DNA from: a virus
Taxonomy: Duplodnaviria; Caudoviricetes
DNA: 64,000 bases
Reading direction: 5' to 3' (one strand)
IMG/VR virus record: IMGVR_UViG_3300031853_000001
Span: 116,933 to 180,932 of that record
Made by a program: the position numbers and the translations under genes. Shown here one piece after another: positions 1-12,184 of this stretch (position 1 is its first letter; the number at the start of each line of letters is the position of its first letter). Below the pieces are notes generated by a model, which ran no database searches, had not been told where the DNA came from, and saw nothing but the letters and a program-made list of their open reading frames with translations.

Positions 1-2
1 AA

Positions 3-386
3 ATTTTTGAGCAGGCTTTTGGCGATAAGGAAGTTATTCTATTCGGTGAGGGCTATGGTCGTAAAATTCAGAAGGGCGGTGGCAAGTATATTGCCGATGG
101 CGTTGATTTTATTCTATTTGACGTTCTAATTGGTGAGAATTATCAAGAACGTGAATGGGTTGAAAGCACCGCCAAGATGTTTGGTATTAAGGTCGTCCCA
201 ATTGTGGGTGGCGGTTCGCTTGAAGACGCTGTAAATTATGTTAAGAAGCACCCTAATTCGATAATTGCGGAAGATGTACGAGAAATGGAAGGTATTGTAT
301 GTAGACCCGCTGTTGAGCTACGTGACCGTCGTGGTAATCGTATTATTGTAAAAATTAAGTGGGAAGATATAAAGGAGCTTATTTAA
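3..386 (+). CDS. ATP-dependent RNA ligase (Rnl2-like nucleotidyltransferase), 5'-truncated by window edge
   Basis: Frame open from base 3: ...ILFGEGYG...FILFDV...EGIVCRP...IVKIK, matching nucleotidyltransferase motifs III, IIIa, IV and V. Confidence 0.75.
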   Translation: MFEQAFGDKEVILFGEGYGRKIQKGGGKYIADGVDFILFDVLIGENYQEREWVESTAKMFGIKVVPIVGGGSLEDAVNYVKKHPNSIIAEDVREMEGIVCRPAVELRDRRGNRIIVKIKWEDIKELI

Positions 387-387
387 T

Positions 388-612
388 ATGAATGGATTTT
401 ATAAAGTAAAAGTTAATAATTATGGAGAAAAACCCGAAGAATGGTCTGGTGTTGTTGTGGGTAACGATGAAGGTGACCTTATGAACAAGGTTATGAAATA
501 TTATGGTCACGATAATGTAGAACAAATAAGCTTTTGGTTTGGAGAATTTTATGATAATGATGTCGTAGAATTTGACGATTTTAAGGATTGTCCATTATTT
601 GACTTTCACTAA
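388..612 (+). CDS. hypothetical protein
   Basis: 74-aa ORF abutting the ligase, RBS AAGGAG. Confidence 0.6.
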   Translation: MNGFYKVKVNNYGEKPEEWSGVVVGNDEGDLMNKVMKYYGHDNVEQISFWFGEFYDNDVVEFDDFKDCPLFDFH

Positions 613-627
613 AAATTTTGATATAAT
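599..627 (+). promoter_or_regulatory. sigmaA-type promoter upstream of the tRNA island
   Basis: TTGACT-N17-TATAAT. Confidence 0.75.
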
Positions 628-658
628 ATTTATACAAGGTGAGGGAACTCACCAATAA

Positions 659-731
659 TGCGGAGTGGCCAAGTAGTTAAGGCAATTGGCTCATACCCAA
701 TAGATCAAGAGTGCAAATCTCTTCTCCGCAA
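659..731 (+). tRNA. tRNA-Met/Ile2 (CAT)
   Basis: Acceptor TGCGGAG/CTCCGCA; anticodon arm ATTGG-CTCATAC-CCAAT; T arm AAGAG-TGCAAAT-CTCTT. Confidence 0.85.
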
Positions 732-974
732 CTCAGCGCAAAAGGAGAGCAAGCTGTTACTCCGAGTGAACTTATCGGCGCTATATAAATAGGAAAAACC
801 AATTAAATACAGTATTTTAAATGAAGTAATAACTGCCATAGAAGTCATGACCTATGATAGAAGACACTTCATTTAAAGCAACCGGTTGATTTGCGCAATT
901 AAGTCGTTAGAAGCGACTAGAGGGAGAGACCCTGACTAATAAGCAAGTCCATTCTATGAAATGGTAATGTCGAA

Positions 975-1044
975 AACCAATTAGTGTAAAGTAGCATACC
1001 TTACCAATAATAAGGAGAATCAGCGTAGCGAACTGAATTGGCGT
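975..1044 (+). pseudogene. degenerate tRNA-like element (anticodon position AAT)
   Basis: CCAAT/ATTGG partial acceptor, GTGT..GCAT D stem, CCTTA-CCAATAA-TAAGG arm, TCAG..CTGA T stem; no CCA. Confidence 0.45.
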
Positions 1045-1708
1045 ACTGGAATTTGTTGTCCAGAGTAGGCATAAATCGAGCAGCAATGCGGTAATACCCG
1101 TGCACAGGTAGCTAAATTACCCTGGCTCACCAATTATTTTAGAAGATAAGACTTGAGCTTATCTCTGGCTATGAAGCGAGTGCCGTGCCGCAGATGCGGT
1201 GCTTAGTGGAGCCTATGTGGGTTTAGCGTGTCAACCACAATGCGGATAGGTATTAACCGAAAGAAAACACGCTTTAATGGCGCTTTATCCCAAGCCTTTT
1301 CGCGGCGGCGCTATAAGTACCAAAAGGTATTATTTAATACTGAGCGTGAAACTAAGAGGGAACTGAAGGCTGTGCCAAGGTGAAAGGCTAACAGTCCGAG
1401 TGATGACCGTTGAAGCCATTCGGTGCATAGTGGTGCCGTTAAAGCGATGGATGCATACATCGTCCACTTCATTTAATGACTTGATGCTTATCAAGCTAGA
1501 ACTATCGAGGACGTGTGCGGTGGGAATGTTTGAGATTAGATGTAGATAGTTTAAGTATAGACTTGCGGTGCAAGCCTAATCAACTGGCGTTCCGCGGCCA
1601 GAATACTTTGCGGGCTTTATTGATTCGGGAGGAAGTGTCCGTAGATGAACTTCTCGGAGTAATCGCCATAATCGAATCAGCCGTGCGGCTGGCATAATGC
1701 CGCAATAT

Positions 1709-1828
1709 GGCACCGTAGTGCAAAGGTAAGCACGCCGGCCTTTGTGAGATAGGGTAAAGTGCAGTTCAACTCTGCCGTCTCGCACCACAAGCCGGTGATG
1801 CTGGGTTCAAGTCCCGCCGGTGCTTCCA
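1709..1828 (+). tRNA. tRNA-Glu(TTC) interrupted by a 44-nt tRNA-like insert (1744-1787)
   Basis: GGCACCG/CGGTGCT acceptor + T-CCA; CCGGC/GCCGG anticodon stem; removing 1744-1787 gives loop CT-TTC-AA. Confidence 0.85.
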
Positions 1829-1831
1829 AGC

Positions 1832-1918
1832 AAAGAAAAGAGAAGCATAAATCTGATCAATTTATGAGATAATGATGCCCTAACATCAAGTCTTTTCTTT
1901 AATAAATATTATTAGGGT
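1832..1918 (+). promoter_or_regulatory. three-way junction with RBS-pairing loop (RAGATH-18-like) before HNH gene
   Basis: AAAGAAAAGA/TCTTTTCTTT stem; CATAAAT/ATTTATG; TGATG-CCCTAA-CATCA loop complementary to TTAGGG at the RBS. Confidence 0.55.
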
Positions 1919-1924
1919 GATATT

Positions 1925-2566
1925 ATGAGTAGAAAATTAAGCCAACAACAATTTGAAGAAAGAGTATATAAGACATTTGGAGATAAATATTCTGTAGTAA
2001 GTGAATATTTAGGTCAAAGAAAACCTATAACTTTACATTGTAATATACACAATATTGATTTTACAGCTACTGCTGAATGTTTCATGAGACAAGCTAATGA
2101 CACTCGCTCAAGTTGTCCAGAATGTACTGCAGAAAAACGAAGACAAGAAAATAATTCTGTAAAATGTGAATGTGCTTATTGTCATAAAATTTTTTATTTG
2201 TCTCAATCTAAAGCTAATAATTCTAAAAGTGGATTACATTTTTGTTGTAGAGAACATAAAGATTTAGCTCAAAGAATAGATAGCGGTGAACAATTCGATA
2301 TAATGCGCCCGCCTCATTATAATGCAATAAAAAATGATACAGGAACAATTGGGACATATCGTATTTTAGCTTTTAGAAATTATCCCCATAAGTGCGCTGT
2401 TTGTAATTGGGACGAAGATGAAGATATATTACAAGTTCATCATATAGATGAAAATAGACAAAATAATTCTTTAACCAATTTAATTATTTTATGTCCTAAT
2501 TGTCACGCAAAAATAACTTATGGGAAATATAAATTAATTGATCGAAAACAAATTATATTAAAATAA
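1925..2566 (+). CDS. HNH endonuclease
   Basis: CAVC...VHHIDENRQNN...LCPNCH. Confidence 0.85.
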   Translation: MSRKLSQQQFEERVYKTFGDKYSVVSEYLGQRKPITLHCNIHNIDFTATAECFMRQANDTRSSCPECTAEKRRQENNSVKCECAYCHKIFYLSQSKANNSKSGLHFCCREHKDLAQRIDSGEQFDIMRPPHYNAIKNDTGTIGTYRILAFRNYPHKCAVCNWDEDEDILQVHHIDENRQNNSLTNLIILCPNCHAKITYGKYKLIDRKQIILK

Positions 2567-2579
2567 AATTAAATAGGAG

Positions 2580-2885
2580 TTGTTGTATATGGCAATCCAC
2601 GATAGAGCTTATACTCGTACAAAAAGTTGGACTAAGGCACTTCGTAAATACCACATTGATAGAGATATTTCCGCAGGTAAATGGTGGCCTATGTACAATA
2701 ATCTCCATCAATATGCTGATAATAAAATTCATTGTTCCTGTCCAATGTGTAGTGCTAAAACCAACAACAAAAAGCGCAATGGGCCTCGTGGATGGGAACC
2801 TTCAAAAAATTGGTCTATTTCAGATCAAAAGAAAATTAATAGTATGGAAAGTCAAGTTGAGGAATTAAATGATAACTTGGAATAA
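2580..2885 (+). CDS. hypothetical protein (HCSCPMC motif)
   Basis: ORF with RBS AGGAG; start may be ATG 2589. Confidence 0.6.
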   Translation: MLYMAIHDRAYTRTKSWTKALRKYHIDRDISAGKWWPMYNNLHQYADNKIHCSCPMCSAKTNNKKRNGPRGWEPSKNWSISDQKKINSMESQVEELNDNLE

Positions 2886-3063
2886 TTTTAAATGTGATTT
2901 TCCGTATCATCGTATAGATAATTTTGGCGATTATAGTGAAATGTGGTGCGGACGATTAGAAAAATATATTTCTAATTGTAATGATTGCCCATTTAACCAA
3001 AAAGAAAAAGAGATGCGTGAAGACCCCAATAATTATCAAAAATGGCTAAAATTACATAATTGA
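2869..3063 (+). CDS. hypothetical Cys-rich protein
   Basis: Overlaps upstream ORF; RBS GAGG. Confidence 0.55.
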   Translation: MITWNNFKCDFPYHRIDNFGDYSEMWCGRLEKYISNCNDCPFNQKEKEMREDPNNYQKWLKLHN

Positions 3064-3121
3064 CTTTTTCTAAAAATTATAGTATAATATATATAGTTAA
3101 GGGAAAGGAGATAAATTATTT

Positions 3122-3253
3122 ATGAATTATCTGGATGATTTTCTTGTTGGCCCGCAGAGCGATGAATATGATTGGTATTATGAAAATGAAATTCCTGATC
3201 CAGAATGGGACAGGAGATGTCGAGGATTGGATAAACTAATACTTGACAAGTAA
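3122..3253 (+). CDS. small acidic protein (43 aa)
   Basis: RBS AAAGGAG and own promoter at ~3060; below ORF-track cutoff. Confidence 0.5.
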   Translation: MNYLDDFLVGPQSDEYDWYYENEIPDPEWDRRCRGLDKLILDK

Positions 3254-3271
3254 TAAAAATTATGTTATAAT
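3243..3271 (+). promoter_or_regulatory. consensus sigmaA promoter
   Basis: TTGACA-N17-TATAAT with TG extended -10. Confidence 0.8.
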
Positions 3272-3301
3272 ATTTATAGAAACAAGGAAAGGATGATAAT
3301 T

Positions 3302-3394
3302 GTGCGCTTTACGACTCGCAAGTCTCGTACTGTGTTTTCTTCTTCTTGGAGTCGCCGCAAGCAGGCAGAGATGCTTGATGAGTGGCAGATTTAA
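3302..3394 (+). CDS. small basic peptide (30 aa, GTG start) MRFTTRKSRTVFSSSWSRRKQAEMLDEWQI
   Basis: RBS GAAAGGA behind a consensus promoter. Confidence 0.5.
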   Translation: MRFTTRKSRTVFSSSWSRRKQAEMLDEWQI

Positions 3395-3939
3395 ACGCCA
3401 GATTAGTTCAGCAAATTGCGGCCAATATTAATGGCGTTACCGCATTCCTTACTTATAGTTTGGAAGTACAAAGGTTTTGAGTAATTGAACCGGTTAAATC
3501 AATGCTTGGCGCCGGGTCCACCCTACTGGGCTCGTAAACAAATCGCGGCCAATGGTGAGAAGCGCCACCGCTATAAAGGAATGCCCCACGACGGGTTTCG
3601 TAAGTTATGTTGAAAGATATATACTAGCTTGGAATAAGCACACGCAAGAGTTGCTATAATGCGCAACAGAAAAATCCTTTATAATAGGTTAACCTACGGT
3701 CGGATGGGAGACGATAAACCCCTTTCAAGCAGTCTCTTTGGCGGTTGGACTTAAAATAAACCACCTAGGTCAGCAGGACTGATAACTATATATTATAGAA
3801 GCAATCTCTTTTATAATATATAGAAAACGCAGCCATAATCCTGTCGTTGCGGCGAACAACGATAAAAATCGCTAGTAGCCCAGATACTTACTTAAAGGGT
3901 TTTCGCCGCGTTAATCTTGGTATCGGATTGCGGTTGTAT

Positions 3940-4074
3940 CCACGCGTGGTGCAAATGGCGAGACACAGCGGACTTACGTAGGCCCAGTGGCTTGTTGGAG
4001 AGCAACACTCCTTCCTACGACCAAAATCCGCGACGCAAGATACATTGCTGGTTCAAATCCAGTCGCGTGGACCA
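3940..4074 (+). tRNA. tRNA-Leu(TAA) interrupted by a 47-nt tRNA-like insert (3977-4023)
   Basis: CCACGCG/CGCGTGG-A-CCA; GCGGA/TCCGC stem; long variable region; removing the insert gives CT-TAA-AA. Confidence 0.85.
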
Positions 4075-4077
4075 TAT

Positions 4078-4154
4078 GAGTTTGTAACCGAATTGGCATA
4101 GGTACTTGGCTCAAACCCAAGGTTTTGTGGGTTCGACTCCCACCAAACTCACCA
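4078..4154 (+). tRNA. tRNA-Leu(CAA)
   Basis: GAGTTTG/CAAACTC-A-CCA; CTTGG-CTCAAAC-CCAAG; GTGGG-TTCGACT-CCCAC. Confidence 0.9.
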
Positions 4155-4222
4155 AAATTTATATTTCGAGTGCGAATTATAATAATTTGAATTCGATGTT
4201 ATTACTTATCTAATGTAAGGAG

Positions 4223-4993
4223 GTGGTTAATATGCCACTAAAATATAAATTAGAAGAAGTATTAACAGAAAATTCTCCTGTTACTAGAAAAGTTTTAAAA
4301 GATTATTTAGCAAAATATAATGTTTTAGAATATAAATGTGCAATATGCGATAACAGAGGAGAATGGAATGGAGTTTCTTTAACATTACAAATAGACCATA
4401 TTAATGGTATAAGAGATGATAATAGAAAAGAAAATCTTCGTTGGCTATGCCCGAATTGTCATTCTCAAACTGATACTTTTACTGGGAAAAATAAAACTAA
4501 AAAAGAAGTTGTTAATTTTACAGTAGAAGAAGCTATTAAAGCATTACAACAAACTGAAAATGTAAATCAAGCAACCAAATTAATCGGCTGTGCGCAAGGT
4601 GGAGCAAATTGGATTAGAGTAAATGATATTAAAAAAAAGTATGGAATTATTCAATCTGGGGATTTAAAGAAAGAAGAAAAACAAAAGTTTAAAGAAAATC
4701 ATATTAATGCGAAACCAATTAACTCTATTAAATTATGTAAAAAATGCGGCCGTCCGTTATCGACAAAAGATGCTGAATACTGTCAAACTTGTATACACGA
4801 ATTTCAACGAAAATGTGAATGGCCTTCTCGCGAAGAACTTAAAAAATTAATTCGCTCTACACCTTTTTTACAAATAGGTAAAAAATATAATGTAAGCGAT
4901 AATGCTGTAAGAAAATGGTGCTTAAATTATGGTTTGCCATCTAAAAAGATGGAAATAAAAGCAATTTCAGATGAAGATTGGAATAATATTTGA
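4223..4993 (+). CDS. HNH endonuclease
   Basis: CAIC...LQIDHING...NLRWLCPNCHSQT. Confidence 0.9.
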   Translation: MVNMPLKYKLEEVLTENSPVTRKVLKDYLAKYNVLEYKCAICDNRGEWNGVSLTLQIDHINGIRDDNRKENLRWLCPNCHSQTDTFTGKNKTKKEVVNFTVEEAIKALQQTENVNQATKLIGCAQGGANWIRVNDIKKKYGIIQSGDLKKEEKQKFKENHINAKPINSIKLCKKCGRPLSTKDAEYCQTCIHEFQRKCEWPSREELKKLIRSTPFLQIGKKYNVSDNAVRKWCLNYGLPSKKMEIKAISDEDWNNI

Positions 4994-5044
4994 CTTTCTT
5001 TTAAAATTATAGTATAATAATTATAGTAAAGAGAAAGGATTTAT

Positions 5045-5257
5045 ATGAAAGCAAAGTGTAAATGCAGTTGTATTTGGGACTATTCTTGTAATGATATTAA
5101 AGTTGAACCTGACGGTCACGATGTTGTAGTTACTTTATATTGCCCTAATTGTGGGCATCAGCTTTTTGCTTATAGCCCTAATGACCTAATAGAAAAAGTA
5201 TCTCCTTCTTATGTTGATACTCATTGTTTTTCAAAATACACTTGGAATAATACTTGA
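5045..5257 (+). CDS. hypothetical Zn-ribbon protein
   Basis: CxC..CPNCG; promoter and RBS upstream. Confidence 0.6.
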   Translation: MKAKCKCSCIWDYSCNDIKVEPDGHDVVVTLYCPNCGHQLFAYSPNDLIEKVSPSYVDTHCFSKYTWNNT

Positions 5258-5294
5258 CTTTTAGCAGAAAATCTGCTATAATAAATATGTAAGA

Positions 5295-5365
5295 ACGACG
5301 GTAGCAGCAGTTTTAATAATAAATATTTTTAATGTAAAAATCCTTATTAGCAAAAATTCCGTCGT
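5295..5365 (+). ncRNA. stem-CAGCA cassette 1 (skipping-rope-like)
   Basis: ACGACGG/CCGTCGT closing stem, GCAGCAG, internal AT-rich hairpin. Confidence 0.5.
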
Positions 5366-5379
5366 GCTGATTGAAATTA

Positions 5380-5445
5380 AGGCGGACACAGCAAATAACT
5401 ATTTAAGCAATAATCTTTTAAATTATGTAGCTAAAATAACCGCCT
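5380..5445 (+). ncRNA. stem-ACAGCAA cassette 2 carrying a Lys(TTT) anticodon arm
   Basis: AGGCGG/CCGCCT; ACAGCAA; ATAAT-CTTTTAA-ATTAT. Confidence 0.6.
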
Positions 5446-5454
5446 AGAATTTAT

Positions 5455-5532
5455 GTGCCCGTGGCGCAACTTGGCAGACGCGCTACACTTAGGATGTAGA
5501 TTTTCAGAGTTCAAATCTCTGCGGGCGCACCA
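5455..5532 (+). tRNA. tRNA-Leu(TAG)
   Basis: GTGCCCG/CGGGCGC-A-CCA; CTACA-CTTAGGA-TGTAG; CAGAG-TTCAAAT-CTCTG. Confidence 0.9.
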
Positions 5533-5740
5533 GTCACTCCTCGCTAATGCGACAAGTCGCGTTAACATTTGTTTGTTAGCTACTGTTGGAAAACGCGACT
5601 TTAAAATACAAAGAAGCAACAGTAAATAGCTCAAACCGTATGTTGAGACTATCGTAACTATCACATTCTAGGAGTCCTGACTCGTTATTGGACTTAATAC
5701 TCAACGGAGTTGGCGCCCAAACAAATCCTAGAATGTATAT

Positions 5741-5793
5741 GGTATCAAGTGAAGAGCCTTCTCGTGGCGATACTGATTTCGACTAATCTTCAC
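5741..5793 (+). ncRNA. minimal HDV-like (theta-type) self-cleaving ribozyme
   Basis: P1 GGTATC/GATACT with G1.U wobble; P2 GTGAAGA/TCTTCAC; P3 GCC/GGC; L3 TTCTCGT; J4/2 CTAA. Confidence 0.75.
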
Positions 5794-6015
5794 AAAATAT
5801 TAAAGCGTGCTTTTCCTTGCTGTACACTTGTTGAAAAGCCAAATGTTCCCGTATGAGAATACGCAGGTTATACCTGTATATTGAAATCCCATAAGACGTC
5901 ACAAAGGAATGGATAGAAATTACAATGGGCCATTCAGAAAGTAGAACACTTTAATATTTGACTTTTTCTGAAAATTCTGGTATAATAATTACAGAAACAA
6001 GGAAAGGACAAAATA

Positions 6016-6171
6016 ATGAAGATACTTGTTGTAAATAAAGATGAGAAAATACAATTAATTCATCTCCTAAAACAAGAAATACGCAAACCTGGTTGTCCTT
6101 ATGAATTACTTACTATTTTAGAAAAACTTAGTCCTGGAGACTATGAATATCTTTTTACAACTATGAAATAA
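6016..6171 (+). CDS. small hypothetical protein (51 aa)
   Basis: Promoter at 5958-5986, RBS GAAAGGA. Confidence 0.55.
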   Translation: MKILVVNKDEKIQLIHLLKQEIRKPGCPYELLTILEKLSPGDYEYLFTTMK

Positions 6172-6194
6172 AAGAAAGGAAGTAGATACTCCAT

Positions 6195-6748
6195 TTAATA
6201 AAATGGTTGAACCAAGTGAAGAAGAGTTAACCACTCTGCTTGGGCTATCTAAATAACAGCCATACGATTTAGCGGGATACTACTAAATCGCGGCCACGAA
6301 ATCAGTAATGATTAGTGATAAGGAGAAACTCTTAATGTTAAGGATAGGCGCTTGGTTATTCGCTAACAAAAACTTGGCTCCTTGCGGCGTCGTAATAGAA
6401 AGCAGATTGAGCAGATTTGCCGAACCCAGAAAAGACTTTAAGGTGGCAGTTAAAGGGACTCTGGGAAAGCCATAAGACGTTTGGTGTCGTTGAAACCTAG
6501 AAATAGGATATAAGCAAGGTTCACAGATAAAGTAGCCTAAAACGACAATGATTCTAATAAGTAATTTAATTAGAATAATGTGCTGAATGGTTTAGGTGAA
6601 ATTTGGGAGTAATCAGTCTCCCCGTTGCTAGCCAAAAGGCAGGATGAAGAAGTTAAAGGGTCGCTACCTTTGGCTCAGCCTTCATCTTCAACGTGGTTGA
6701 ATATGTTAGAAGGATAATACAAGTACGGCGAAGGTCGCAACGGTTTTA
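6195..6748 (+). ncRNA. large structured RNA, ROOL-like
   Basis: ~550 nt ORF-free and helix-rich; the 3' part (AAAAGGCAGGATGAAG..GGGTCGCTACC..CTCAGCCTTCATC..GTGGTTGAATA..GGCGAAGGTC) resembles ROOL 3' domains as recalled; tRNA-island context. Confidence 0.5.
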
Positions 6749-6768
6749 TTAAATGGGGTATTTGCCCT

Positions 6769-6854
6769 AGACTTTAAGGTAGCATTGGAGTAATTAACCA
6801 ATGAGACAAAGATGCTCCTACATCGGCTTAAAGTTTAAAATATAATCATAGGAG
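6769..6854 (+). promoter_or_regulatory. RAGATH-18-like three-way junction/pseudoknot masking the HNH RBS
   Basis: ACTTTAAG/CTTAAAGT; CATTGG/CCAATG; GAGACAAA; GATG-CTCCTA-CATC loop complementary to RBS TAGGAG. Confidence 0.6.
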
Positions 6855-6863
6855 TGATTTAAT

Positions 6864-7424
6864 ATGCCAAGGAAAATTGATTTAACAGGAAAAATTTTTG
6901 GAATCATACAGGTAGATTCGCCAGCACCAAGTCAATCTGGTAAAACGTATTGGAATTGTCATTGTACAATTTGTAATACTAAAAAAGTAATTCAAGGTTG
7001 CGCCTTAAAAAATGGTTCTATTAAAACTTGCGGTTGTGGTTGTTCTTTTCATAAACAAAATACTTCAAAAATTTGTGAAATTTGTGGAAAAGAATTTATT
7101 CCAATAAAATTTGGCGGTGCTAGAAAATATTGTTATGAATGTTCTCCGCAAGAAGGCTCAGAAACAGATAAGCGCACAGTTATAAGACGAGCTTTAAAAA
7201 AGATGCTAGTTGATTATAAAGGTGGAAAATGTGAACGATGTGGATATAATAAATGTTTACGCGCATTAGAATTTCATCATTTAAATCCGTCTGAAAAAGA
7301 TTTTGGAATTTCTGGATGTATAACTAAAAATGTAGAAGAATTAAAAAATGAAGTTAATAAATGTATTTTAGTTTGTTCTAATTGTCACGCGGAAATTCAT
7401 GAAGAATTAGACGAGGCCCGTTAG
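6864..7424 (+). CDS. HNH endonuclease
   Basis: CERCGY..LEFHH...CILVCSNCHAEIH; stop codon lies inside tRNA-Asn. Confidence 0.85.
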   Translation: MPRKIDLTGKIFGIIQVDSPAPSQSGKTYWNCHCTICNTKKVIQGCALKNGSIKTCGCGCSFHKQNTSKICEICGKEFIPIKFGGARKYCYECSPQEGSETDKRTVIRRALKKMLVDYKGGKCERCGYNKCLRALEFHHLNPSEKDFGISGCITKNVEELKNEVNKCILVCSNCHAEIHEELDEAR

Positions 7425-7491
7425 TCCAGTTGGCAGAACGATAGACTGTTAATCTATGTCAGCGCTGGTTCAAGTCCAGCACGGGCCGCCA
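7415..7491 (+). tRNA. tRNA-Asn(GTT)
   Basis: GGCCCGT/ACGGGCC-G-CCA; ATAGA-CTGTTAA-TCTAT. Confidence 0.92.
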
Positions 7492-7771
7492 TAGTCACAT
7501 AGAGGACTTATTCTCTATGCTTGCTCAACGTCCCACTTATGTGAACGCGCGAAGTCACATAAGAGAGTCAACCCTTCCGAAGTACGAAGGAACCCCTAAA
7601 ATGGTCTGTGGGGATAAGCGGTGTCATGAACCGCCTAATGTAGCTGGCAAAGAGCATAGGTTCGTTAGGCTCCTAAGAAAAGCCTATCACCATCACGATA
7701 GCAAATAAGTGAATAAACGGATACGCGGTTAGCTGACCTTAAAGCTATTCTAATCTAGAGGAGAATAAAAT

Positions 7772-8311
7772 ATGAGTGACGTAAGACTAAAAATTTTACC
7801 TCCATGGACAGTAACAATTCGTAAGTTTGAGGCACTATTTGACGGTGACCCACAAATTGCTTGTAATTGTAATTTCTCAGGTTCTAATCCTTCTATTGTA
7901 CTAGCTTGTAATAATGGTGATAAGGTTGCTGCTCTACAGCAGATTCTTCCTTCTGAAGTTGGCTTTGGCAATATTAAGCTAAAGGTCGCGGTTGATGGTG
8001 TTCCTTCTAATCGTACTTTCAAGAGTAAGGTTGAACTATTTGACACGGCTTTCAAGGGGAATCCAGCATACGCTTATTCTGCATGTCCTGCTGAGGAAGG
8101 TTATCAGTGGATTGGGACTACTTATGTTGTATTTAATAACTGTGTAGTGCAGTTCGCGGCGGACAATCTAAATGATTGCCATGGTATTATTAGCACCCTA
8201 TATGAAACTATCGCAAGCGAACTTCTAACTGGCCCCGCTACTGATGGTGTATTTTATAATACAAATGTAGAACGTGCTGGGCTTGGTCTTTCGCTAGGAG
8301 AATGGCCATAA
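7772..8311 (+). CDS. hypothetical protein
   Basis: 179 aa, RBS GAGGAG, phage-like codon usage. Confidence 0.75.
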   Translation: MSDVRLKILPPWTVTIRKFEALFDGDPQIACNCNFSGSNPSIVLACNNGDKVAALQQILPSEVGFGNIKLKVAVDGVPSNRTFKSKVELFDTAFKGNPAYAYSACPAEEGYQWIGTTYVVFNNCVVQFAADNLNDCHGIISTLYETIASELLTGPATDGVFYNTNVERAGLGLSLGEWP

Positions 8312-8532
8312 AAGATAAGTTCACTGGGCTCTTCTAAAGTCCAGTACCAAAGCCGAATGTCACATAAAGTTAACGACGGTGCGGTATGAAAAGACCACGC
8401 TGTAGTGGCACGGGCAGAGCTAATCCGGCAAGGAAAGCGGCGGTTAAAGTGAAATCGCGACGCGGAAAGAGAAAGAATAACAACCAGTGATGGGTCGAAA
8501 GACGTCTTATCAGTTTTCTCGGTCACTTTTAT

Positions 8533-8606
8533 AGTCCGTTAGTTTAACAGTAAAATATAACCCTGTCACGGTTAAGTTACGAGGGCAGCACTCGTACGGA
8601 CTGCCA
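8533..8606 (+). tRNA. tRNA-Asp(GTC) with atypical T loop GGCAGCA
   Basis: AGTCCGT/ACGGACT-G-CCA; TAACC-CTGTCAC-GGTTA. Confidence 0.85.
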
Positions 8607-8724
8607 TAGACTCAAACAGCAATATTTTACTTGCATGTGGGGCCGGAAGTATTGGTTTAACTCCAGTTCTCTCCACCACATGGAGAGATAGTGTAACGAT
8701 AGCACGCCGTATAGTATGAGTCTA
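8607..8724 (+). ncRNA. stem-ACAGCAA cassette 3 containing a circularly permuted tRNA (GTG/His-like anticodon)
   Basis: TAGACTCA/TGAGTCTA; the 3' half (T arm, TCTCTCC-A-CCA) precedes the 5' half (GGAGAGA-TA-D arm). Confidence 0.7.
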
Positions 8725-8730
8725 GTATAT

Positions 8731-9283
8731 CGGGTTGTAGCGCAGTTTGGTAGCGCGCCTCGCTTGGGAAAAGCGATTTGTGCTTAATTATTATGTTAGA
8801 CATTACTCAACAAAAAGGAACGATTACAGAATTACGATGTATTTTAGATTTAACTAATTTGGGAATACGATGTTTAGTTCCTGTAGATGAAAGTTCTAAA
8901 TATGATGTAGTAGCAGATTTAAATGGTACTTTTATTAGAATTCAATGTAAAACAGCTTGTTGGGCTAAAGATACCGTTCAAGAAAAAGTAGCCTTTGAAA
9001 TAGATACTTGTCGAAGTACAACAAATACTAAAACTACTACTCATTATAAGTATTCTGCTAATGAAATTGATTATTTTTATACATGGTTTGAAGGACAAGG
9101 TTACTTAGTCTCCATTAAAGAAGCAAAAGGTTTAACTTTTAGATGGCGATATGAATATCCTTCTACCAATCAAAAACAAGGTATTCATATCGCAGAATTA
9201 TATAAGACTGAGGAGGTTTTAAAAGCACTCTAAAATTTTCCTGGACGAGGAGGCCGCAGGTTCAAATCCTGCCTGCCCGACCA
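8731..9283 (+). tRNA. tRNA-Pro(TGG) split by a 476-nt endonuclease-bearing insert (8767-9242)
   Basis: 5' half CGGGTTG..CCTCG-CTTG; 3' half GGA-CGAGG..GCAGG-TTCAAAT-CCTGC-CTGCCCG-A-CCA. Confidence 0.85.
8778..9233 (+). CDS. PD-(D/E)XK homing endonuclease (I-Ssp6803I-like) inside tRNA-Pro; likely start ATG 8793
   Basis: KG.ITE...KYDVVAD...IRIQCKT motif. Confidence 0.8.
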   Translation: MCLIIMLDITQQKGTITELRCILDLTNLGIRCLVPVDESSKYDVVADLNGTFIRIQCKTACWAKDTVQEKVAFEIDTCRSTTNTKTTTHYKYSANEIDYFYTWFEGQGYLVSIKEAKGLTFRWRYEYPSTNQKQGIHIAELYKTEEVLKAL

Positions 9284-9394
9284 TAATCAACTGGGTTTGA
9301 AGGTTATCCCATTTGAAAAACCTTCCCCTTTCTTTCTTGACTTTTTCTAAAAATTTTGATATAATAAATATATCAAAGGAAAGGAAATAAAAAG

Positions 9395-9622
9395 ATGGAT
9401 AAGAAAGAACTTTCTACTAATGCGGCAAAAGCAGAATTTGTAAAGTCTATTCATAATTGGCTTATGCGAACTTTAGAGCAAAACAATAAATCTGAATATA
9501 AAGATTGTTTTACTGTTGAAGGTTCTAGTATTATGTGCCAACTGCCGCAAGACTACTTTAATTCATGTAGTATTCCAGCGAACACTAAGATTGAAATGAA
9601 GTTTATTTCTAAGAAATCATAA
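9395..9622 (+). CDS. hypothetical protein
   Basis: Promoter at 9337-9365, RBS. Confidence 0.65.
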   Translation: MDKKELSTNAAKAEFVKSIHNWLMRTLEQNNKSEYKDCFTVEGSSIMCQLPQDYFNSCSIPANTKIEMKFISKKS

Positions 9623-9626
9623 CTAA

Positions 9627-9718
9627 TAAGCCTTTACTGCAATTACTTAAATGGTTAAATTATTTTGCTTGAATACAAAATGAGAGAAGGTTCGAGCCCT
9701 TCACAATTAAAAGGCTTA
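9627..9718 (+). ncRNA. stem-ACTGCAA cassette 4 with an acceptor-less tRNA body
   Basis: TAAGCCTTT/AAAGGCTTA; D-loop-like AAATGGTTAAA; ATTTTG-CTTGAATA-CAAAAT; GAAGG-TTCGAGC-CCTTC. Confidence 0.6.
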
Positions 9719-9734
9719 GCAAAGTTAGAAACTA

Positions 9735-9800
9735 AAGGCACAAGCAGCAACAAGACGTTTTAATAATTTGATAGTGGATTAAATTTATTGAGTGTGCCTT
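9735..9800 (+). ncRNA. stem-GCAGCAA cassette 5 with a GTG anticodon-like arm
   Basis: AAGGCACA/TGTGCCTT; TTTGA-TAGTGGA-TTAAA. Confidence 0.55.
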
Positions 9801-9809
9801 GATTATTAA

Positions 9810-9886
9810 GTCGGTTTAGCTTAGCTGGTTAAAGCACTCGCCTTGTAAGCGAGAGACCTTCGGTCCGAATCCGAAAACCGGCTCCA
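9810..9886 (+). tRNA. tRNA-Thr(TGT)
   Basis: GTCGGTT/AACCGGC-T-CCA; CTCGC-CTTGTAA-GCGAG. Confidence 0.9.
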
Positions 9887-9907
9887 TCTAAAAGAAGGAG
9901 TATTAAA

Positions 9908-10354
9908 ATGGGACTTTTTAATCGGTCTAAAAAAGAGCCTACAAAACAATATATTCCACCTGAGCAGCCTAAAAAATGCGAGCATAAATTTCAAGATTTT
10001 CCTTGGTATATAGAAGGAGAAGAAAATGAAGGTAATGTATATGGTTGTAACTCTTGGTATCATCTAGTAATTAAAGAACCTTATGTTTGTATTTATTGTG
10101 GCGAAAGATATGATAAAATATTGTGGGAAATAAGACGATATGGCTCTCATAAAGAAGCAATGCAGGCTCTAGATGATGTTAATGAAAAATTTAAAGACCG
10201 AATAAGACATCGCGCAGAAATTGAAGATATGATAAATGATATGCAATTAGTCGATCCTCAATATTTACAATATTATCATATGCTTCAGGGAACAAAAGAC
10301 CCATCTACTTCTCGATTATATGAGCAAGAAATTAAACCAAAATTAAAAACTTAA
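9908..10354 (+). CDS. hypothetical protein
   Basis: RBS AAGGAG, 148 aa. Confidence 0.7.
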   Translation: MGLFNRSKKEPTKQYIPPEQPKKCEHKFQDFPWYIEGEENEGNVYGCNSWYHLVIKEPYVCIYCGERYDKILWEIRRYGSHKEAMQALDDVNEKFKDRIRHRAEIEDMINDMQLVDPQYLQYYHMLQGTKDPSTSRLYEQEIKPKLKT

Positions 10355-10357
10355 TTT

Positions 10358-10476
10358 TATGCGGTCACAGCAATTTTAGATTTAATCTAAGTGTCATCGG
10401 TTCGATTCCGATTATTCCAGCCATTTAATTTGGAGTGTAGCTCAATTGGTAGAGCATTAGAATTATAAACCGCATA
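10358..10476 (+). ncRNA. stem-ACAGCAA cassette 6 containing a circularly permuted tRNA (TTT or TAT anticodon)
   Basis: TATGCGGT/ACCGCATA; 3' half 10381-10423 (ATCGG-TTCGATT-CCGAT, TATTCCA-G-CCA), then 5' half 10431-10461 (TGGAGTG-TA-GCTC-AATTGGTA-GAGC-A-TTAGA). Confidence 0.75.
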
Positions 10477-10489
10477 GTACGATATTTAA

Positions 10490-10554
10490 GACGCTTACAG
10501 CAATTTAATACAGTCGCACACATAAATAATTACATGACTAAGTAATAGAGCGTC
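10490..10554 (+). ncRNA. stem-ACAGCAA cassette 7
   Basis: GACGCT/AGCGTC; TACAGCAA. Confidence 0.55.
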
Positions 10555-10577
10555 GCGTTTTTATTTGAGGAATTAAA

Positions 10578-11012
10578 ATGAAGTTATATACATCTTATTT
10601 CGCGCAATTAAGGAATTTTCCACCAAATCTTGTTGGGCTTTCAACTGCAATTTGGAATCCCAAATGGTTGAATCCTGGCCGCGATAAAAATGGAGCAATT
10701 TGGTTAGATATTCCGCCACTTAAACCTGGGAAGGAGTGCGATGGATTATGTAATGGGAAGTGTGCTCCAAAACATCCTAATGATTGTGATTTTCTTAAAG
10801 TATATCGTAAGCAACTTGATAGGATAGATTTTAAGATGTTTATTGAACATTTAGAAACTCTTGCTAAAACTATTCAACTTGGCGAAAATTTAGACGAAGT
10901 TAATTTTGCCTTTCTTGTTTATGAAAAGTATGATAATCCTTGTAGTGAACGCGCAATAATTCAACAATGGTTTAAGGATAATGGAATGGAGATTGAAGAA
11001 TGGAAGAAATAA
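10578..11012 (+). CDS. DUF488-like protein
   Basis: MKLYTSYFA...YEK....CSER..I..W pattern. Confidence 0.55.
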   Translation: MKLYTSYFAQLRNFPPNLVGLSTAIWNPKWLNPGRDKNGAIWLDIPPLKPGKECDGLCNGKCAPKHPNDCDFLKVYRKQLDRIDFKMFIEHLETLAKTIQLGENLDEVNFAFLVYEKYDNPCSERAIIQQWFKDNGMEIEEWKK

Positions 11013-11332
11013 ATAATTATGATTGGCTTCATTATATTCCACAGGGTTGGAAAGAAATTGGCCGACAAATGATTCAAGAGTGCGAAGCAATTGACCCAAC
11101 TTACTGCATTTGCGATTTAAAAGAAAAATGGGGAACCCTTGATGTAATCGCAAATTGTGATATGACTTATTGGCGTGAAATAGATATGATTGAAAATAAG
11201 TATGAAAAATTAAGTGCAAGAACTTGTTGTTCCTGCGGCCAACCCGCTACAAAATATTCTACTGGATGGATTCTTCCTTGGTGTGATAAATGCGGCGATA
11301 TGGATGAAAAGTTTTATAAGAGGTTTGAATAA
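11000..11332 (+). CDS. hypothetical phage protein
   Basis: KEKWG.L...TC..CG...GWI...C pattern. Confidence 0.65.
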   Translation: MEEINNYDWLHYIPQGWKEIGRQMIQECEAIDPTYCICDLKEKWGTLDVIANCDMTYWREIDMIENKYEKLSARTCCSCGQPATKYSTGWILPWCDKCGDMDEKFYKRFE

Positions 11333-11428
11333 GGCGGGTTAAGCCTAATTTGGTAAGGCAGGAGATTGCTAATCTCTGAGTAATCGGTGTATACCGGTGT
11401 TTCGGTTCAAGTCCGAAACCCGTCGCCA
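11333..11428 (+). tRNA. tRNA-Ser(GCT)
   Basis: GGCGGGT/ACCCGTC-G-CCA; GGAGA-TTGCTAA-TCTCT; long variable arm. Confidence 0.9.
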
Positions 11429-11430
11429 AT

Positions 11431-11588
11431 TGTGGACTGTTGGCTTAGAAGCAGCCATTCAGCTAAGGAGTTCTTAATTTCTCTATTAGTGCGAAATGTA
11501 TTGTGGGCTACATTTGTTATAATGCCCCACGAGTATGATGTGCAAATAGGTAATAGGAATATAAGATTTGGCGTAATAGCACACCACA
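11431..11588 (+). ncRNA. mimic of 23S rRNA H43-H44 (L11-binding / GTPase-associated centre)
   Basis: TGTTGGCTTAGAAGCAGCCAT (11438-11458) and GCGTAATAGC (11571-11580), closed by TGTGG/CCACA. Confidence 0.7.
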
Positions 11589-11719
11589 AATATTGAGCTG
11601 GCCAGAGTAGCGTGCAGAAAGCTCATTAAACACGGGGTTACTACATAGACTTGCCCACGCCTCTTAACAATGCGTACCTTGGAGAGCGCGTGTTCCGCGA
11701 CGTTTAACTGCGGATTTAT

Positions 11720-11794
11720 GCGGGTGTAGTTCAACGGCTCGAATACTTGGCTTCCACCCAGGAGATGAGGTTTCGACTACCTCTACTCGCACCA
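11720..11794 (+). tRNA. tRNA-Gly(TCC)
   Basis: GCGGGTG/TACTCGC-A-CCA; CTTGG-CTTCCAC-CCAGG. Confidence 0.9.
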
Positions 11795-11797
11795 TAT

Positions 11798-11874
11798 AGG
11801 GAATTAGCGTAATGGTAGCGCCGCGGGCTTTGAACCCGTCTGTTGTAAAGGTTCGATTCCTTTATTCCCTGCCA
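11798..11874 (+). tRNA. tRNA-Gln(TTG)
   Basis: AGGGAAT/ATTCCCT-G-CCA; GCGGG-CTTTGAA-CCCGT. Confidence 0.9.
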
Positions 11875-11947
11875 ACCCAGATAGCATTAGGGTTTTCGGT
11901 GCGATAAACTTGCTATCGGTTTGCACCTGTTTTAAGGAGATTATATT

Positions 11948-12184
11948 ATGAAACGAGGAACAGATCATTCTTGGGAAGTGCGTAAATATTTAGGAGACAT
12001 AGCTTGGTATGCACATTGTAAATGTGGGTTTGAATATGCTTGCTCAAAAAGTAAAAGAAATAATGATGGGACTTGGTCCGTTGAGCAAGAAATAGATTGG
12101 CTTGCCCATTATTGCCCAAATTGTGGTGCTCGCAAGAAATGGTATAATCTTGAAATAATTAAAATAAATAAACATAAGTTCTAG
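11948..12184 (+). CDS. hypothetical Zn-ribbon protein
   Basis: CKCG..YCPNCGA; RBS AAGGAG. Confidence 0.65.
   Translation: MKRGTDHSWEVRKYLGDIAWYAHCKCGFEYACSKSKRNNDGTWSVEQEIDWLAHYCPNCGARKKWYNLEIIKINKHKF

Follow-up and report, generated by a model that had tools for sequence, protein, structure and literature searches.

How might a tRNA gene be read when its anticodon loop is interrupted by the gene for a DNA-cutting enzyme and the interruption contains no ribozyme? This question is raised by a tRNA-Pro(UGG) gene in the virus record IMGVR_UViG_3300031853_000001 (labelled G000; 180,932 bp, rated complete), the final 64 kb of which were analyzed here and are referred to as the window. The gene is split by a 476-nucleotide (nt) insert that consists almost entirely of an open reading frame (ORF) for a homing endonuclease of the I-Ssp6803I family. 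Our analysis places the insert in a large family of phage tRNA inserts that combine a fixed site after nt 36, a covarying RNA rod paired to the anticodon in more than 12 tRNA species, a homing endonuclease and no ribozyme. An initial interpretation made from the letters of the DNA (the sequence-only reading) had proposed a selfish element that proteins excise and ligate, a mobile version of the minihelix introns. Protein-based excision and ligation is also what we infer. To our knowledge, every tRNA intron described from bacteria and phages splices itself, and tRNA splicing that depends on proteins is ascribed to archaea and eukaryotes.

The insertion site and the RNA rod

When introns were allowed, ARAGORN called tRNA-Pro(tgg) at 8731-9283 with a 476-nt intron, in agreement with the sequence-only reading; 441 nt of the insert are ORF. 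Both plain ARAGORN and Rfam overlook the split gene. The boundaries are ambiguous over GGA, such that 8767-9242, 8768-9243 and 8769-9244 (sites 35/36, 36/37 and 37/38, respectively) yield an identical product. The first pair of boundaries had been used initially, and the 26 nt then counted before ATG 8793 and 9 nt after the stop are correct for it; the non-coding insert outside the ORF comprises 25-26 nt upstream and 9-10 nt downstream, ~35 nt in all. By homology with the related inserts, the insert is 8768-9243 (Table 1).

The position of the site was examined in ~40 distinct related inserts representing 14 anticodon types in the ARAGORN register. The insert always followed nt 36, and one placement only (k=5) fitted all related inserts. 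This placement was supported by likeness to intron-less tRNA bodies of known anticodon (64/66 for Arg ACG, 67/67 for Asn GUU). It was also supported by an exact filled/empty pair of a sister insert, in which a 463-nt insert lies between CTGTT and AA of tRNA-Asn in locus L069, and the same tRNA-Asn is uninterrupted in locus L070. The two loci come from one metagenome and share flanks at 96-100% identity, with no duplication of the target. Because tRNA-body similarity and the L069/L070 pair are independent lines, the 36/37 site can be regarded as fixed. A site at 35/36 was rejected for the family, since placement after nt 36 alone agrees with the L069/L070 pair and yields the expected anticodon in Arg, Asn, Ser, Gln, Val, Glu, Met and Asp hosts. 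As judged from these genes, the comparisons show insertion exactly after nt 36.

Folding of the inserts revealed a common order in the set of ~40: the anticodon helix comes first, then helix 1, then an internal loop or bulges, then helix 2, beyond which the ORF is looped out. At the folded junctions, a continuous helix crosses the 5' site and the 3' site has a 2x2 mismatch, and the last three insert bases pair with all three anticodon bases in 33 of 37 distinct inserts. Part of this structure had been noticed in the sequence-only reading as GGAAAA/TTTTCC ends (8767-8772 with 9236-9241); the pairing holds, and although weak on its own in AT-rich DNA, it is conserved in nine related loci, with a compensatory G-C to A-U change at one pair and a wobble change at another. 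The single 'discriminator-like T' that had been described beyond these ends (9242) is instead the middle base of the anti-anticodon triplet, and pairs with G35.

Covariation was assessed in ten tRNA-Pro loci. Both the closing helices of the insert and the cloverleaf that forms around it covary strongly, with 99% of cells paired and 21/35 pairs double-changed, a level reached by 0/500 shuffles. In helix 1, a G-C to A-U double change was identified in L002 and L003 and an A-U to G-U change in L009. In helix 2, compensatory changes affect 5/5 counted pairs and 100% of cells are paired; the helix extends to 11 bp in L010. The internal loop between them is conserved in sequence and contains purine-purine oppositions, and its position 2 (A or C) changes jointly with the opposite G or A. 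A K-turn and a loop-E motif were considered for this loop, with no convincing match by eye. Counted over the rod, there were 50 G-U pairs compared with 10 A-C oppositions, and because of this excess we conclude that pairing has been selected in the sense RNA and not in DNA. Inverted repeats or a cruciform in DNA were rejected as the reason for the rod by the same count and by the lack of a target duplication. A terminator-like hairpin at 8760-8776 was also discarded, since its pairing is not conserved in relatives. Taken together, these comparisons show an RNA rod that aligns the two junctions.

Table 1. Features of the split tRNA-Pro gene, its insert and a candidate sealing enzyme (window positions)
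Feature	Position	Strand	Details
tRNA-Pro(UGG) 5' exon, nt 1-36	8731..8767	+	Acceptor, D arm, anticodon stem CCTCG, loop C32 U33 U34 G35 G36; end set by the family rule
Anticodon UGG	8765..8767	+	Pairs with the final insert bases 9241-9243 (C, U, G): one G-C and two G-U
Insert (putative intron), 476 nt, after nt 36	8768..9243	+	Length from ARAGORN; placement by the family rule
Helix 1, 5' strand GAAAA	8768..8772	+	Pairs with 9236-9240 (UUUUC)
Internal loop, 5' side GCGAUUU (GAGAUUU in most relatives)	8773..8779	+	Opposite 9229-9235 (UCUAAAA / UCUAAGA)
Helix 2, 5' strand GUGCUU	8780..8785	+	Pairs with 9223-9228 (AAGCAC), within the last ORF codons
Homing-endonuclease ORF, 146 aa, I-Ssp6803I family (PD-(D/E)XK)	8793..9233	+	ATG 8793, TAA 9231-9233; from Pfam, profile and fold
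Rod 3' strand	9223..9243	+	Helix 2 9223-9228, loop 9229-9235, helix 1 9236-9240, anti-anticodon 9241-9243
tRNA-Pro 3' exon, nt 37-76	9244..9283	+	G37 A38, stem CGAGG, variable loop, T arm, acceptor, A73, encoded CCA
Rnl2-like RNA ligase, 216 aa, C-terminal part	1..386 (gene G000 116668-117318)	+	PF09414 4e-18; T4 Rnl2 4e-7

The endonuclease, its mobility and the ribozyme question

Analysis of the ORF bore out its initial assignment to the I-Ssp6803I-type PD-(D/E)XK family. The product matched PF11645 (PDDEXK_5) with an E value of 2.6e-20 and 73.3 bits (cut-off 26.1) over 134/138 profile positions, and a profile of 11 family members matched only PDB 2OST (I-Ssp6803I; E 3e-14). An AlphaFold model of the product (pLDDT 89.5) had 2OST as its top fold match (TM 0.75, E 1e-9), with Hjc resolvases next. 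All enzymes returned by the fold search act on DNA (I-Ssp6803I, Hjc, EcoRV), and none is an RNA-splicing endonuclease. Residues E13, D38, Q51 and K53, which we take from the description of 2OST to be catalytic, are invariant in an alignment of 11 diverse family members, and the column of ATG 8793 does not vary among ten homologues. The endonucleases have a conserved C-terminal E-E-V, which is almost always encoded by GAGGAGG (window 9211-9218), just 5' of helix 2; this is a strong Shine-Dalgarno-like string within an AT-rich gene, and the ORF's own start has no such site.

In-frame stops were observed in the ORFs of some relatives (L056:1340-1771, L056:3008-3436, L086:6847-7332 and L083:2719-3126), and all were TAG. 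Relatives carry genes for tRNA(CTA), an amber suppressor, and tRNA(TTA), for which reason some sister phages probably recode stop codons. The use of broken endonuclease ORFs as a test of cis-dependence was dropped, since such ORFs are probably read through.

The distribution of the family points to an element that moves. Nine viral contigs encode endonucleases of 67-87% identity, all at the same place in tRNA-Pro, and their exons differ via compensatory changes. A neighboring 179-aa ORF retrieved 74 loci of a phage family of ~170-190 kb. Many of these loci contain an intron-less tRNA-Pro(UGG), in several cases directly downstream of the 179-aa ORF as in the window, and thus represent a syntenic empty site. 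An alignment-based scan identified family members at 80 viral loci, 42 of which are enclosed by a split tRNA gene, and each enzyme clade keeps to one tRNA species. The phage GenBank collection contained no close relative of the locus, and only distant endonuclease homologues (27-32% identity) were found there. Because empty sites exist, the element is best described as selfish and mobile, and from these distributions the insert looks to be of the homing type.

Several searches addressed RNA catalysis. An Rfam search of positions 8400-9600 at E ≤ 10 revealed no intron or ribozyme family and no RF00028, and a search of 20 diverse related inserts at E ≤ 1 gave no group I, group II or ribozyme match. 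As a positive control, RF00028 matched other tRNA introns of sister phages (L056:8063-8248, 65.5 bits; L079:3686-3895, 49.7 bits). This group I covariance search agrees with the initial claim that the insert has no ribozyme core. A group I core overlapping the ORF, which would speak against that claim, was also looked for. Synonymous variation was observed at 52/81 codons with a conserved residue and in every 15-codon window (only 9 distinct homologues), and because it occurs all along the ORF, a core hidden in the ORF is unlikely. The group I rules for the flanking bases do not hold: the insert is preceded by G36 here and by any of G, T, C and A in relatives, where group I introns have U, and it ends in G here, as group I introns do, but in A, C or T in relatives. 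A group I intron needs ~200 nt of structured RNA or a core overlapping the ORF, and the insert offers neither. Judged by these searches and by the space available, the insert is without self-splicing RNA.

The two RF00028 matches belong to a set of 173-226-nt inserts in other tRNA genes of sister phages, and similar inserts were seen at L031:3839-4107 and L065:5005-5280. Those of 173-177 nt, located in CTA (amber-suppressor) tRNAs, gave no RF00028 match at E ≤ 0.001 where scanned (L031, L056). A match resembling the twister-P1 ribozyme was identified at L104:1406-1472, ~300 nt downstream of a split tRNA-Pro, with a score (59.1 bits) below the gathering score of 67.2. According to a 2014 review, all phage introns known then were in protein-coding genes (PMC3984707); the RF00028 introns in tRNA genes of sister phages run counter to this.

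We also compared the insert with the minihelix introns to which the sequence-only reading had related it. The tRNA-Glu (1709-1828) and tRNA-Leu(UAA) (3940-4074) genes of the window and many tRNAs of relatives contain ORF-less inserts of 44-117 nt, with other examples at L021:5263-5443, L033:4039-4171, L048:6478-6624 and L065:3799-3921, among others. Each such insert resembles a mini-tRNA, with an acceptor stem, T arm, discriminator and CCA, and its site ranges from after nt 33 to after nt 35. When these inserts are taken to run from their first paired base to CCA, the restored anticodon is also the one predicted by intron-less tRNAs of identical or near-identical sequence (Lys 69/69, Leu 79/79). 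In some copies CAA stands at the end in place of CCA, and ARAGORN mis-names the genes that bear such inserts. In contrast, the tRNA-Pro insert has neither T arm nor CCA, its C-U-G end pairs with the anticodon, and it follows nt 36. Thus, the selfish and mobile part of the initial proposal stands, given the empty sites, and the minihelix part does not. The RNase P/Z-like recognition that it had assumed in common with minihelix introns does not fit a site that is always 36/37 and not 35/36. An RNase P/Z minihelix model was rejected for the further reason that the inferred cut sites lie in paired stretches or end them. The two kinds of insert may share a ligase; as their structures are predicted, they cannot share recognition of the cut sites.

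A proposed route of removal and its alternatives

In the mechanism that we propose, the I-Ssp6803I-type homing endonuclease would cut intron-less tRNA-Pro genes at the anticodon, and repair would copy the ORF-bearing insert into the cut gene, exactly after nt 36. In the transcript, the two short non-coding ends of the insert and the last ORF codons would fold into a rod that prolongs the anticodon stem, in the order 32/38 and 33/37, the 3-bp anticodon:anti-anticodon helix, helix 1, the conserved internal loop, helix 2 and the looped-out ORF. A structure-specific, probably dimeric endoribonuclease would then cleave each strand immediately 3' of the 3-bp helix, so that 3-nt 3' overhangs remain. 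Within the anticodon loop, the exons would be healed and joined either by phage proteins (kinase-HD, cREC and the Rnl2-like ligase) or by a host ligase, and the outcome would be the phage's only tRNA-Pro. We regard this reading, a mobile ribozyme-less tRNA intron removed by a symmetric nuclease cut followed by healing and ligation, as an even call.

Some observations are consistent with removal at the RNA level. In a bovine gut metatranscriptome (RNA run X14), 8766 is joined to 9243 on one contig (depth 6.9), which omits 476 nt and has the expected three ambiguous letters; contigs of the unspliced locus in the same run have a depth of 2-3. No such joint occurs in X1, the source DNA run (depth ~25), which is a different sample from X14. 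We take the X14 joint as a hint of splicing. Joints from 8756 to 9252 with 19 other letters were also identified and were rejected, since they come from other tRNA-Pro genes. Runs X20 and X21 cover only parts of the insert and contain no joint; RNA coverage gaps are uninformative, and these runs carry no weight. The exons of split genes are as intact as 835 intron-less tRNAs (16.25 compared with 16.21 of 17 stem pairs), and no decayed exons were detected among 52 distinct split genes. Finally, a pathway for joining tRNA halves is suggested by the ORF-less mini-tRNA introns of this phage family, for which identical intron-less alleles exist.

Enzymes that might heal and seal the exons are encoded by these phages. 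The Rnl2-like ligase, the C-terminal part of which lies at the start of the window, is by its domain match a candidate exon-sealing enzyme. It ends an RNA-repair-like row directly upstream of the tRNA region (G000 114116-117318), which consists of a DUF2828/DUF7788/VWA (Ro60-like) gene, cREC_REC, a 101-aa ORF and the ligase; weak YrlA (Y RNA-like) matches were seen in relatives. The cREC_REC product is a cyclic-phosphate REC protein, and a kinase-HD protein is encoded at G000 74889-75770. Each of the four other near-complete intron-bearing phages has a PHA02142-OB + RNA-ligase protein and an AAA_33 kinase, such that an RNA-ligase domain protein and an AAA_33 kinase are present in all five.

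The following points weigh against removal by this route. The X14 joint is weak: it comes from one contig, whose shorter side covers only 29 nt at a 90% likeness threshold, and 95% of the X14 contigs placed run on into unlike sequence. It may stem from an empty allele, given that intron-less alleles with identical exons coexist in one sample (L069/L070). The test of exon integrity is biased, because ARAGORN finds only intact exons. RNA ligase and kinase form a common phage tRNA-repair set. No EndA, RtcB or RNase III was found in the five phage genomes (EndA, PF01974, at E ≤ 1), which leaves no candidate nuclease there; EndA is generally missing from bacteria. The predicted 3-nt 3' stagger is unlike the 2-nt overhangs of RNase III, and the paired cut sites are unlike those of RNase P or RNase Z. 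RNase III was accordingly rejected, having no phage copy in the five genomes and, in its host form, a stagger that does not match; RtcB was rejected because these phages do not encode it. Lastly, exons diverge more than inserts, and the insertions may be recent.

The last of these points is shared with an alternative that we consider possible but rather unlikely, namely that insertion disables the tRNA, which is never spliced, and that the endonuclease gene homes into tRNA genes the phage can spare. The rod would then serve to free or stabilize the endonuclease mRNA from a polycistronic tRNA transcript (for example through host RNase III), to limit its translation, or to mask the precursor anticodon. 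Greater divergence of the exons would here reflect recent invasions of intact genes, and the lack of an identified splicing enzyme in the five genomes and an empty-allele origin of the X14 joint would both be explained. Moreover, 38/80 family members lie outside any split tRNA call, several of them on their own between intact tRNA genes, so that an intron is not required for the family to spread. However, the anti-anticodon fits the host anticodon in the 33 of 37 inserts noted above and in many tRNA species, which argues for lasting selection on exon-insert pairing at the junctions, and enzyme expression alone does not obviously require such pairing. The phage retains ~25 tRNAs and has no tRNA-Pro besides the split gene, and the (detection-biased) lack of decayed exons and the presence in the same phages of ORF-less mini-tRNA introns with no selfish explanation also argue against a simple loss of the tRNA.

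If the insert is removed as we propose, the nuclease could in principle be the intron-encoded PD-(D/E)XK enzyme itself, with a ligase then joining the exons, although we think this quite improbable. The rod copies the left half and center of the enzyme's DNA site, namely the anticodon stem followed by the anticodon paired to its complement, and the predicted symmetric cuts with 3-nt 3' overhangs have a geometry natural for a dimeric restriction-fold enzyme. I-Ssp6803I leaves 3-nt 3' overhangs on DNA. Each such intron supplies its own enzyme, and the ORFs of relatives are probably intact, with stops only as TAG in phages with a CTA suppressor tRNA. In contrast, the fold matches are all DNA enzymes, the right half of the rod is unlike the DNA site, and we know of no cleavage of A-form RNA by the I-Ssp6803I family. 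RNA cuts by the intron's own enzyme would thus have nothing but geometry in their favor, and appear a poor prospect.

The least probable alternative, to which we give very little weight, is RNA catalysis that was missed, either by a tiny cis ribozyme made of the rod and tRNA body or by a trans ribozyme among the structured RNAs of the phage: the internal loop is conserved in sequence with a non-Watson-Crick opposition that changes on both sides jointly, the region contains ROOL, drum and several unassigned structured RNAs, and group I introns are used in tRNAs of sister phages, but no Rfam ribozyme family was found inside any insert searched, only ~50 nt are available, the predicted cut sites lie in paired stretches at least 6 pairs from the conserved loop, and, in contrast to group I introns, both the base ahead of the 5' cut and the final base of the insert are free to vary.

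If the insert is spliced, as in the mechanism proposed here, it would represent a third route of tRNA intron removal, protein splicing being undescribed for bacteria or their viruses. We would give only slight credence to the idea that bacterial viruses own a protein-dependent tRNA splicing system, in which the homing enzyme or another symmetric nuclease cuts and a phage kinase, phosphoesterase and ligase rebuild the loop. If the insert is not spliced, selfish endonucleases would silence phage tRNAs on a large scale, and the counting of phage tRNA sets would change, since standard tRNA finders miss these genes. A literature search revealed no description of an endonuclease-bearing, rod-type tRNA intron class.

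Setting of the locus and comparison with known systems

The sequence occurs in bovine, sheep and other gut metagenomes, and the phage is a rumen phage of 181 kb. Its relatives in collections of metagenome-assembled genomes are binned with Bacillota, and the host is bacterial. Bases 1-12,000 of the window form a tRNA and non-coding-RNA region with free-standing HNH endonuclease genes and many tRNAs with encoded CCA, among which are a ROOL RNA (6188-6756, 315 bits) and a drum RNA (1166-1277, 70.8 bits); ROOL was also found in L065 and drum in L180. Stretches between the tRNAs at ~780-1700, 3300-3940, 5530-5940, 7490-7760 and 8311-8530 have no long ORF and no family match. A tRNA with the loop CTGTCAC (Asp, GUC) and an unusual T loop was identified by Rfam at 8533-8603 (45.8 bits) and missed by ARAGORN. 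The end of the tRNA-Pro gene directly precedes a terminator-like hairpin (~9300-9335) and a near-consensus extended -10 promoter at 9337-9365 (TTGACT, 17 nt, TG-n-TATAAT). Similar promoter sequences are present near 3062, 4991 and 5958 and recur ahead of small ORFs across the region. In sister phages, the tRNA arrays contain tmRNA genes (L112:106-528, 76.6 bits; L056:2327-2679, 95.4 bits).

Four known systems resemble parts of this element. Phage T4 tRNA repair (Pnkp and Rnl1) heals and seals a break in the anticodon loop with phage enzymes, and similar enzymes are encoded here. In T4 the break results from host defence (an anticodon nuclease) and is not part of gene expression, and the link between the phage enzymes and the tRNA-Pro insert is putative. 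Lak megaphages have 'enigmatic' tRNA introns, some of which are predicted to encode tRNA (Devoto et al., bioRxiv 10.1101/356790). These are likewise non-group-I inserts in the anticodon loop, and the tRNA-Glu and tRNA-Leu inserts of the window are similar to them. The Lak introns are short and ORF-less, in contrast to the tRNA-Pro insert with its ORF, its rod and its fixed 36/37 site.

The group I intron in tRNA-fMet of Synechocystis PCC 6803, which encodes I-Ssp6803I, shares with the tRNA-Pro insert the enzyme family, a position in the anticodon loop, mobility and a DNA target in the anticodon stem-loop. The tRNA-Pro insert differs in that it has no group I core and in the base before the 5' cut, which is G and varies in relatives. 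In addition, the exon pairs with the 3' end of the tRNA-Pro insert, whereas in the Synechocystis intron it pairs with an internal guide near the 5' end.

Archaeal introns of the bulge-helix-bulge (BHB) type with LAGLIDADG endonucleases, which are spliced by EndA and RtcB, are also protein-coding, mobile, ribozyme-less and located in a stable-RNA gene. They further resemble the tRNA-Pro insert in the pairing of exon and intron at the splice sites and in the twofold symmetry of the two cuts predicted here. BHB/EndA splicing itself was rejected, since no bulges were present in the folded junctions of the ~40 inserts and EndA was not found in the five phage genomes. The tRNA-Pro insert thus differs from BHB introns in having no 3-nt bulges around a 4-bp helix, in its 36/37 and not 37/38 site, and in its bacterial host. 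If its own enzyme were to splice it, a homing enzyme would double as the splicing endonuclease, and the insert would be a bacterial-virus counterpart of the archaeal EndA-dependent mobile introns.

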